Source: Escherichia coli (lineage in GTDB: Bacteria > Pseudomonadota > Gammaproteobacteria > Enterobacterales > Enterobacteriaceae). Taken from it: a stretch of DNA of 2,337 nucleotides. Below are positions 1,164-1,430 of the stretch, piece by piece. Within the stretch, counting starts at the first letter, position 1, and each line of letters opens with the position of its first letter. Below the pieces are notes generated by a model. The model made no database searches and was not told the origin of the DNA. It was given only the letters and a program-made list of their open reading frames with translations. The stretch is taken from the NCBI RefSeq assembly GCF_024298765.1, contig NZ_CP101220.1. One strand, given 5' to 3'. The position numbers and the translations under genes were made by a program.

Positions 1164-1267
1164 CAGTATTCCGGTATTTGAAATACCGCTGAGCGGTATT
1201 TCAACCTCCGCTCAGCGGTAAAAACTTTCCCGCTGAGCGGTATATCTATTCCCGCTGAGCGGTATTT
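1164..1267. repeat. Iteron array: five direct repeats in exact 22-bp phase; four full copies of CCGCTGAGCGGTAT(T/A) starting at 1186, 1208, 1230, 1252, plus a degenerate leading copy carrying CGGTATTT at 1172
   Basis: Direct reading: CCGCTGAGCGGTATTT 1186-1201; CCGCTCAGCGGTAA 1208-1221; CCGCTGAGCGGTATAT 1230-1245; CCGCTGAGCGGTATTT 1252-1267. Start-to-start spacing is exactly 22 bp three times. The CGGTAT core recurs at 1172, 1194, 1216, 1238, 1260. The left half CCGCT-N-AGCGG is itself a dyad. Confidence 0.75.
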
Positions 1268-1363: not shown

Positions 1364-1430
1364 CTTCCGCTTCCTCGCCCACTCGCGAGCCTAGCGGCTC
1401 GGTCGCTGGGGCTGCGGCGAGCGGTGCCAC
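1364..1430 (+). other. ColE1/pMB1-type origin-flanking conserved segment, probably a PriA-dependent primosome assembly site (n'-pas / single-strand initiation signal)
   Basis: Window CTTCCGCTTCCTCGCCCACT...GCTCGGTCG...CTGCGGCGAGCGGT versus remembered pBR322/pUC CTTCCGCTTCCTCGCTCACTGACTCGCTGCGCTCGGTCGTTCGGCTGCGGCGAGCGGTATCAGC. Exact blocks of 15 nt (1364-1378) and 14 nt (1412-1425) are shared. Contains hairpin CGAGCC-tagc-GGCTCG (1386-1401). Assignment of this pBR322 region to the pas is from memory. Confidence 0.55.

Follow-up and report, generated by a model that had tools for sequence, protein, structure and literature searches.

What purpose is served by the phased, dyad-containing repeats that lie beside a replication gene on a very small plasmid of Escherichia coli? 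The window, by which we mean the whole stretch of DNA analysed (2,337 nucleotides, contig NZ_CP101220.1), carries such an array at 1164-1267, and the initial annotation read it as five iterons in exact 22-bp phase or, alternatively, as a partition centromere. The evidence assembled here supports with good confidence the view that the array is the iteron set of a replication origin, predicted to be bound by the 137-residue RepL-type replication protein (Rep) encoded about 120 bp away. In addition, the array probably sets plasmid incompatibility and helps to repress the rep gene. The design is a known one and the feature a largely expected one, which leaves current understanding in place.

The window is a complete small plasmid, found as three E. 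coli records in PLSDB that are each exactly 2337 bp and identical (100%) over the full length; these came from human stool, a rectal swab and a chicken. It has only two genes, mobA and rep. A ColE1-type RNA replicon was considered, prompted by the Col(MG828) typing and the GC-rich region 1370-1900, and was rejected, as an Rfam scan of the window found neither RNA I nor RNA II. The sole Rfam match in the window was a sub-threshold microRNA, produced by the palindromic array. With no ColE1-type RNA I in Rfam and only mobA and rep as genes, the module of rep and its repeats is the only candidate replicon.

The core of the repeat, CCGCTNAGCGGTA, occurs exactly on the + strand at 1186, 1208, 1230 and 1252, compared to an average of 0.01 matches in dinucleotide-preserving shuffles. 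Allowing up to one mismatch on both strands gave seven matches, a number reached by none of 200 such shuffles. Tandem Repeats Finder detected 4.4 indel-free copies of a 22-bp period at 1172-1267, and the start-to-start spacings of the array in the repeat search were 22, 22, 22 and 22, which bears out the annotated phase. The central bases of copies 1-4 are G, C, G and G, so that copy 2 indeed carries the complementary base. The internal dyad is present and longer than had been noted, reading TACCG-N5-CGGTA over 15 bp. It is perfect in core 1 (1184-1198, TACCGCTGAGCGGTA), the one closest to rep, whereas the left arm is imperfect in core 2 (1206-1220, CTCCGCTCAGCGGTA), core 3 (1228-1242, TCCCGCTGAGCGGTA) and core 4 (1250-1264, also TCCCGCTGAGCGGTA), the last being farthest from rep. 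Since 22 bp corresponds to about 2.1 helical turns, the sites lie roughly, but not exactly as first stated, on one face of the helix.

The proposed fifth copy at 1164 is only half a unit. The hexamer CGGTAT at 1172-1177 stands in 22-bp phase with CGGTA(T/A) at 1194, 1216, 1238 and 1260, but the left half CCGCTNAG is missing; the array is four full units plus one in-phase half-unit, not five. This half-iteron (1169-1181, + strand, TTCCGGTATTTGA) recurs as a 13-mer at 1138-1150, and its phase is retained only in the closest relatives (L004, L023 and L024), not in L025, L026 and L037. Overall, CGGTAT is enriched in the window, with nine copies against 0.77 expected, seven of which fall within 1097-1265. 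Those at 46-51 and 2324-2329 were tried as extra Rep sites and rejected, as they are conserved in sibling plasmids with other Reps and are not Rep-specific.

Comparison with 30-odd loci encoding relatives of Rep revealed how the array is maintained. All nine loci whose Rep is 69-98% identical to that of the window have exactly four units at 22/22/22 bp. Across these nine loci the core ACCGCTSRGCGG has an information content of 2.0 bits at each of ten fixed positions, the central base is always G or C (1.0 bit), the adjacent purine reaches 1.6 bits and the spacers only 0.2-0.9 bits. The repeat core is under purifying selection and the spacers drift. Invariant cores, drifting spacers and strict phasing together are the footprint of a site recognised by a protein.

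The repeats also change with the protein. More distant Reps have other dyad cores at the same place, including TCAC-N7-GTGA (three loci), CTCAC-N6-GTGAG, GTCAC-N6-GTGAC and A/T-rich units, with a 21-bp period in some of the arrays. All Reps of the set with a glutamine at position 73, at the predicted start of the recognition helix, pair with TACCG half-sites, among them the Arsenophonus Reps of about 60% identity. Where this position is P, T, S or A, the Rep pairs with other half-sites.

The rep gene lies on the minus strand (649-1062) and encodes a predicted winged-helix replication protein of a short clade within the RepL superfamily. The adjacent protein had been annotated with 139 residues, which corresponds to an alternative GTG start at 1068 (minus-strand open reading frame 649-1068). 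A product of 137 residues is more likely, because the homologues begin at ATG 1062 and a GAGGTGA Shine-Dalgarno sequence precedes it. Taken alone, Rep has no match in Pfam or NCBIfam, including Rep_3, Rep_1, Rep_2 and Rep_trans, and stays below the threshold of PF05732 (RepL). Among 5.8 billion proteins, 91 relatives down to 47% identity were found in E. coli, Arsenophonus, Providencia, Photobacterium and Vibrio, several of them named RepL or carrying PF05732, and 17 of the 35 members of the Rep clade alignment (A1) matched PF05732 at E <= 0.001. Profile comparison by hhalign of A1 against A2, an alignment of the Reps of plasmids pHW126, pIGRK and pIGMS31 with the intermediates L002, L003, L007 and L008, gave a probability of 97.8% and an E-value of 9.5e-13 over 114 columns. 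In pairwise BLASTP comparison, Rep matched that of L007 (pKP13a) with an E-value of 2e-13 and the RepL of a sibling plasmid with 8e-12. By these comparisons, Rep appears to be a winged helix-turn-helix (wHTH) homologue of the pHW126, pIGRK and pIGMS31 Reps and, distantly, of RepL.

The AlphaFold2 model of Rep has a winged-helix core of helix-strand-helix-helix-hairpin topology (residues 35-98), followed by a C-terminal β-hairpin. The predicted local distance difference test (pLDDT) score is 66.7 overall, which is moderate, and 76-86 over residues 30-100. Structural similarity search of the Protein Data Bank (PDB) using Foldseek revealed only weak matches to winged-helix regulators of the MarR/Crp type, with E-values of at least 0.019, and a PDB sequence search with the Rep family profile gave nothing meaningful. 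The 137 residues hold a single winged-helix core rather than the two winged-helix domains of PF01051 or related proteins, and a Pfam scan of Rep found no catalytic motif of the HUH/Tyr or Rep_trans kind.

Among the relatives of Rep are those of replicons that have been studied experimentally. In the three pHW126-like plasmids examined in detail, the replication (REP) modules consist, in order, of a palindrome resembling a single-strand initiation (ssi) site, a conserved region (CR) of about 20 bp, four 20-bp repeats 2 nt apart, inverted- and direct-repeat (IR/DR) operators and a wHTH rep gene, the product of which is distantly related to pSN2 RepL (PMC6854812; bioRxiv 10.1101/2022.12.05.519187). 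In pIGRK and pIGMS31, the minimal Rep-dependent origin comprises the CR and the iterons IT1-4, plus IR1 in pIGMS31; IT1-4 are bound by Rep, act as incompatibility determinants and are required in cis, Rep regulates itself via IR/DR, and loss of ssi leads to multimerisation (PMC6854812; bioRxiv 10.1101/2022.12.05.519187).

We compared the sequences of pHW126 (NC_019295), pIGRK (NC_011405) and pIGMS31 (NC_011406) directly with the window. pHW126 has four perfect copies of GGTTGTCAAAAACGTCAACTAG at a period of 22 bp, in pIGRK, GTTGTCAAATTCGTCAACnnnn occurs four times with 22-bp spacing, and in pIGMS31 AGTTATAGATTCCTATAACC is present in three full copies at an irregular spacing of about 22-24 bp together with a divergent fourth (AGTTGGTCATTCGACCAACT); every one of these repeats contains an internal dyad. 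Read in the sense of rep, the window presents an ssi-like element (1430-1364), a conserved motif (1328-1301), a small palindrome (1283-1273), the iterons (1264-1184) and the half-site (1177-1172), followed by the imperfect dyad O1 (1146-1129), the inferred promoter TTTACT-N17-TAAGAT (1129-1101), the dyad O2 (1101-1086), the Shine-Dalgarno sequence and rep. Like the three plasmids, it has four dyad repeats of about 22 bp, bordered by an ssi/conserved stretch on one side and, on the side of rep, by IR/DR operators that lie directly before the gene, and its inverted repeats share half-sites with the iterons. It also resembles pHW126-like plasmids in its overall make-up, as these are plasmids of 2-3 kb with two genes and an AT-rich REP module joined to a mobilisation (MOB) module. 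The window thus appears to hold what marks a pHW126-like module, namely four repeats of 22-bp period, an ssi-like palindrome identified by position and orientation, and IR/DR operators before rep.

Compared to the pHW126-like Reps of 201-251 residues, the window Rep with its 137 residues has neither their variable N-terminal part nor their C-terminal coiled-coil. Its plasmid also differs in the ColE1-like type of its ssi and in a MOB module of the relaxase-less NikA/oriT type, and no second in-frame Rep' is evident. A CR common to pHW126, pIGRK and pIGMS31 (ACCmTTGmTATTACT), which we delimited from the three plasmid sequences and mutagenic oligonucleotides rather than from a published figure, was not found in the window. 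Because the CR is absent, the motif in its place is different and Rep is about half as long, the plasmid is best placed in a short-Rep clade of RepL/pHW126-like replicons, not in the pHW126 family in the narrow sense.

Several points weigh against reading the array as the iterons of an origin. The absence of the family's CR is one of them, and pairwise comparison of Rep with the pHW126 Rep gave no significant similarity. The moderate model and the weak fold matches count on the same side, and the co-variation of residue 73 with the half-site is confounded by phylogeny. In electrophoretic mobility shift assays, fragments with the ITs of pIGRK and pIGMS31 bound weakly or binding was confounded by non-specific binding (PMC6854812; bioRxiv 10.1101/2022.12.05.519187). 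The pHW126 repeats were reported not to be an incompatibility determinant, which was mapped to ssi and CR instead, so that the role of the repeats varies within the family (bioRxiv 10.1101/2022.12.05.519187). Moreover, the origin function proposed here for the short-Rep clade draws on experiments with its relatives rather than on its own members. Altogether, the RepL-type Rep next to the array, the selection on the core, the co-variation of Rep and repeat and the architecture shared with pIGRK and pIGMS31 nevertheless point to predicted Rep-binding iterons, and the dyads are consistent with binding by dimers, as the initial annotation had suggested.

The iteron half-sites recur at the rep promoter. 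A putative promoter on the minus strand (1101-1129) consists of a -35 element TTTACT (1124-1129) and a -10 element TAAGAT (1101-1106) separated by 17 nt; it was inferred from the sequence and agrees with the consensus at 8 of 12 positions, below the threshold of the sigma-70 scan, which therefore did not report it. The block AAGTATTTAC at this position is conserved in the TACCG-type relatives of the clade. The operator dyad O2 (1086-1101) abuts the inferred -10 and reads TACCG-TTTTAT-CGGTA, or TACCG-ATAAAA-CGGTA in the sense of rep. Its half-sites are those of the iterons, and its spacer has 6 nt, all A or T. The imperfect dyad O1 (1129-1146, ATAC-T7-CCGGTAT, with CGGTAT at 1141) overlaps the -35 and is probably a second operator; in relatives an O1-like element, ATACyk-N-AGTAT, is fused to GTATTTAC.

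Comparison of 1086-1101 with 1184-1264 in the window, and of the corresponding elements at loci L015, L030, L031, L033 and L035, showed that the promoter-proximal dyad shares the iteron half-sites in five specificity groups, with a spacer that is one base longer. The iteron and operator spacers are N5 vs N6, N6 vs N7 and N7 vs N8, respectively, and the operator spacer is A/T-rich in four of the five groups.

These half-sites on the promoter are also what lends some weight to an alternative, which we consider unlikely, that the array serves autoregulation only, as an operator or enhancer for the rep promoter, and that replication starts at another place, such as the conserved motif at 1301-1328 or the GC-rich backbone. 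In pIGRK, IT1-4 also affect the activity of PrepR (PMC6854812), and the location of the pHW126 incompatibility determinant at ssi and CR rather than at the repeats would fit as well. On the other hand, the -35 and -10 regions are already covered by two dedicated dyads (1086-1146), 55 bp separate the -35 from the nearest full repeat upstream, and four units in exact 22-bp phase are conserved across the family regardless of promoter details. The repeats of pIGRK and pIGMS31, moreover, are needed in cis for Rep-dependent replication.

A second alternative, that the repeats act as single-stranded hairpins in a single-strand origin or as the nick-site hairpin of a rolling-circle origin, is very improbable. 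Its support is that the fold of the + strand over 1160-1290 has an energy of -31.8 kcal/mol, compared to -12.4 ± 2.5 kcal/mol for shuffles (z = -7.7), and that the family was initially classed as rolling-circle (PMC2831885). Such a strong fold is, however, an automatic outcome of tandem dyads. The identity of the half-site bases is conserved (2 bits per position), the central base is free and there are no compensatory changes, a pattern typical of recognition by a protein. The promoter, in addition, carries the same half-sites around a different spacer, and a separate ssi is present. The partition centromere (parC/parS-like, bound by a centromere-binding protein) offered by the initial annotation can be set aside almost entirely, since, although phased direct repeats with internal dyads do resemble such sites, neither of the two genes is of the ParA, ParM, ParB or ParR type, the protein beside the array is homologous to replication proteins, and 2.3-kb plasmids of this family depend on copy number rather than on partition.

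An origin with Rep-bound iterons, the reading we prefer, invites comparison with the classical iteron plasmids, and here the initial annotation was right in substance about a Rep-iteron array, while its classic geometry belongs to a RepL/pHW126-like replicon rather than to a theta replicon of the Rep_3 type. Rep_3 initiators contain two winged-helix domains; their monomers bind the iterons and their dimers the operators. The window Rep, by contrast, has a single winged-helix core, and every iteron forms a dyad of its own, which would imply dimers at both kinds of site. As in the Rep_3 replicons of pSC101 (RepA), R6K (pi), F (RepE) and pPS10 (RepA), direct initiator sites of about 22 bp lie near rep, related inverted repeats at the rep promoter would serve autorepression, and the array would be expected to act in incompatibility and handcuffing (PMC4980987). 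Unlike these replicons, the window has no Rep_3 match, no DnaA boxes above chance, no integration host factor (IHF) site and no A/T-rich unwinding block. DnaA-box-like matches in the window numbered six against 5.55 expected, none of them perfect, a scan of the window for the IHF consensus found none, and the flanks of the array have 35-49% GC with no long A/T block. The staphylococcal pSN2 family (PF05732) is similar in its small HTH Rep of about 18 kDa, its very small plasmids and a mechanism that has been poorly studied (PMC5703833). The pSN2 plasmids differ in being assigned to the rolling-circle type, having a double-strand origin and the single-strand origin ssoA, and the window Rep itself scores below the PF05732 threshold.

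Beyond the array, away from rep, three further elements complete the module. A small palindrome, GCCTCTAGGCC (1273-1283; GGCCTAGAGGC in the sense of rep), flanks the array, and related modules retain it in the form GGCyTAGAGsC. At a distance of about 55 nt from the first iteron lies a conserved motif on the minus strand (1301-1328, rep-sense TAAGATAGATTCACAGACAGATAGG), purine-rich and reading TAAGATAGATTCAyAGAyAGA, which extends across the whole short-RepL clade; an alignment of 18 loci gave the 70% consensus T.AGA.AGATT.A.A...AGA. As it is conserved even beside unrelated iterons, it may be the site of a host factor or of initiation rather than of sequence-specific Rep recognition, and we regard it as a candidate counterpart of the family's CR or as an initiation site. 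In pHW126 and pIGRK, TCTTAGAT-like repeats occur in the opposite orientation at a similar place.

The ssi-like element (1364-1430, minus strand), which in the sense of rep reads ...ACCGCTCGCCGCAG...GCGAGGAAGCGGAAG, belongs to the backbone common to the sibling plasmids. We take it to be a putative primosome assembly site, from the literature on the family and from the ColE1 sequence. Its fold energy is indistinguishable from that of shuffles (z = -0.5), so that its identity rests on homology and position. With 80-95% identity it recurs in 1252 PLSDB plasmids that represent many replicon types, among them E. coli plasmids of 1.55 kb and 4.07 kb, and it behaves as a widely exchanged cassette. 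In L002, L003, L007, L008, L023 and L025 it lies upstream of the origin in the same position and orientation. At L015, L031, L035 and L036, from Photobacterium and relatives, an inverted repeat GATAACG...CGTTATC, followed by TTGTCCACA, occupies the place of the enterobacterial ssi about 250-350 nt upstream of rep; TTGTCCACA is one mismatch from a DnaA box.

From these elements we propose how the origin might work. By analogy with pIGRK and pIGMS31, Rep dimers would occupy the four dyads cooperatively, and the resulting nucleoprotein complex would activate initiation in the adjacent conserved stretch (1273-1328), after which the displaced rep-sense strand would be primed at the ssi (1364-1430). 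The iteron half-sites at the rep promoter (1086-1146), with their A/T-rich spacer longer by one base, would mediate autorepression of rep, and titration of Rep by the array would make it a determinant of incompatibility and copy number.

The mode of replication is disputed for the pHW126 family, with rolling-circle and theta both proposed (PMC2831885; bioRxiv 10.1101/2022.12.05.519187): pHW126 was classed as rolling-circle (PMC2831885), two-dimensional gels of pIGMS31 revealed both theta and rolling-circle intermediates, and catalytic HUH/Tyr or Rep_trans motifs are absent from the family's Reps (bioRxiv 10.1101/2022.12.05.519187). The published nick site of pIGMS31 (2268/2269) is located about 60 nt upstream of that plasmid's CR, and non-specific nicking occurred alongside it; the site was not used to place a nick in the window. 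For the window we lean towards a non-classical initiation, given the lack of DnaA and IHF sites, a single-winged-helix Rep without HUH or Rep_trans motifs, the tiny size of the plasmid and an ssi in the sense of rep just upstream of the origin. These features are equally compatible with rolling circle, in which the rep-sense strand would be displaced, and with the mixed picture of pIGMS31. A bolder and decidedly speculative proposal is that the short RepL clade (133-147 residues) represents a minimal initiator with a single winged helix, which would bind as a dimer at both origin and promoter, would tell them apart by N versus N+1 spacing (G/C-containing versus A/T-only) and would fire an origin devoid of DnaA boxes via the purine-rich motif, with neither an HUH nuclease nor a switch between monomer and dimer.

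The whole REP module is exchangeable. Siblings of 2.3-2.6 kb are about 90% identical to the window over 1-555 and 1332/1358-2337, and replace 556-1357 by another RepL with different 22-bp repeats (L002, L003 and L039). The swapped cassette comprises terminator, rep, operators, iterons and conserved motif on a common backbone of mobA, the origin of transfer (oriT) and ssi, the breakpoints being the mobA stop codon on one side and a point immediately ahead of the ssi on the other. Strain STEC2018-607 holds both this plasmid (pSTEC2018_607-o) and a sibling (pSTEC2018_607-n) with another Rep/repeat module. Such co-residence would be expected if the swapped module, not the shared backbone, sets incompatibility, and may be taken as a hint in that direction. 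The window, L003, L004 and L039 have quite different Rep/iteron modules and are all typed Col(MG828) in PLSDB; the typing probe thus appears to lie on the shared backbone and not to mirror the actual replicon. For pKL1, pCERC7 and pBuzz, nothing on this replicon was found in the open-access literature.

On this backbone, mobA (134-559, + strand) encodes a protein matching NCBIfam MobA with an E-value of 1.8e-27; the homologue in one related record is named NikA. The gene is NikA-like, and the MOB module is of the relaxase-less NikA/oriT type. Upstream of mobA, the minus strand of 21-70 reads GCGAATGTATTCGCGGTATGACGAATACACATCCTGTCCCATTTTCC, in which an inverted repeat GCGAATACATTCGC at 51-64 is followed by an ATCCTG motif. 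This stretch resembles the nick regions of IncI1/R64-type oriT, and siblings that have other Reps retain it. In combination with the NikA-like mobA and the lack of a relaxase, the oriT-like stretch suggests that the plasmid may be mobilised in trans by I-complex plasmids. The sequence AATACTGG at 1353-1360 was considered as a ColE1-like nic site and rejected, the ATCCTG-type oriT at 21-70 being the better candidate. Between the convergent mobA and rep, a hairpin read from the sequence (569-594, AGGTCTT-N12-AAGACCT) is probably a bidirectional terminator; it lies near the left edge of the REP module, which starts at 556, and the sibling L002 has an analogous hairpin.

Among 5426 complete E. coli genomes, the module of the window is rare, occurring in 11 and in each case on a plasmid. 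A scan of genome contigs gave only 11 loci, mostly from Arsenophonus, and a metagenome scan for two phased cores gave 13. In five of these, a homologue of Rep (62-100% identical) is encoded 100-130 bp downstream, and eight are unrelated high-GC tandem repeats without RepL. The high-GC metagenome contigs L040-L044, L046, L048 and L052 have intergenic 22-bp tandem repeats with ACCGCTCGGCGG or ACCGCTGAGCGG and no RepL nearby; these repeats appear unrelated to the plasmid iterons. The 5351-bp metagenome contig OMAY01003693.1 (L050) encodes a Rep 100% identical to that of the window with four iterons retained, and a second RepL-like open reading frame of 24% identity about 2 kb away; either two sibling plasmids have formed a cointegrate here, or the contig was misassembled across the backbone that they share. 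Large Arsenophonus plasmids and contigs (L005, L006, L012 and L016-L021) carry several RepL modules, at times two within 1.5 kb, each with its own upstream ssi-like element and degenerate repeats.

For the tiny cryptic plasmids of E. coli, the analysis provides an assigned, if predicted, origin and a specificity pair of Rep and iterons, where Rep is often labelled a hypothetical protein, the repeats are unannotated and tools of the PlasmidFinder type lump the plasmids under Col(MG828). Exchange of the REP module (556-1357) as a cassette on a NikA/oriT/ssi backbone would account for near-identical backbones coexisting in one cell. The little-understood pHW126/RepL design is thereby extended to a clade with a shorter Rep, known from Enterobacterales, Vibrio, Photobacterium and Arsenophonus, in which only the spacing rule of iteron versus operator and the clade-wide conserved motif may be new. 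The plasmid would also make a very small system for settling rolling-circle versus theta replication in the RepL/pHW126 family, and, if the proposal of a minimal initiator holds true, the clade would offer a compact model for rolling circle, theta or both in RepL-type plasmids.

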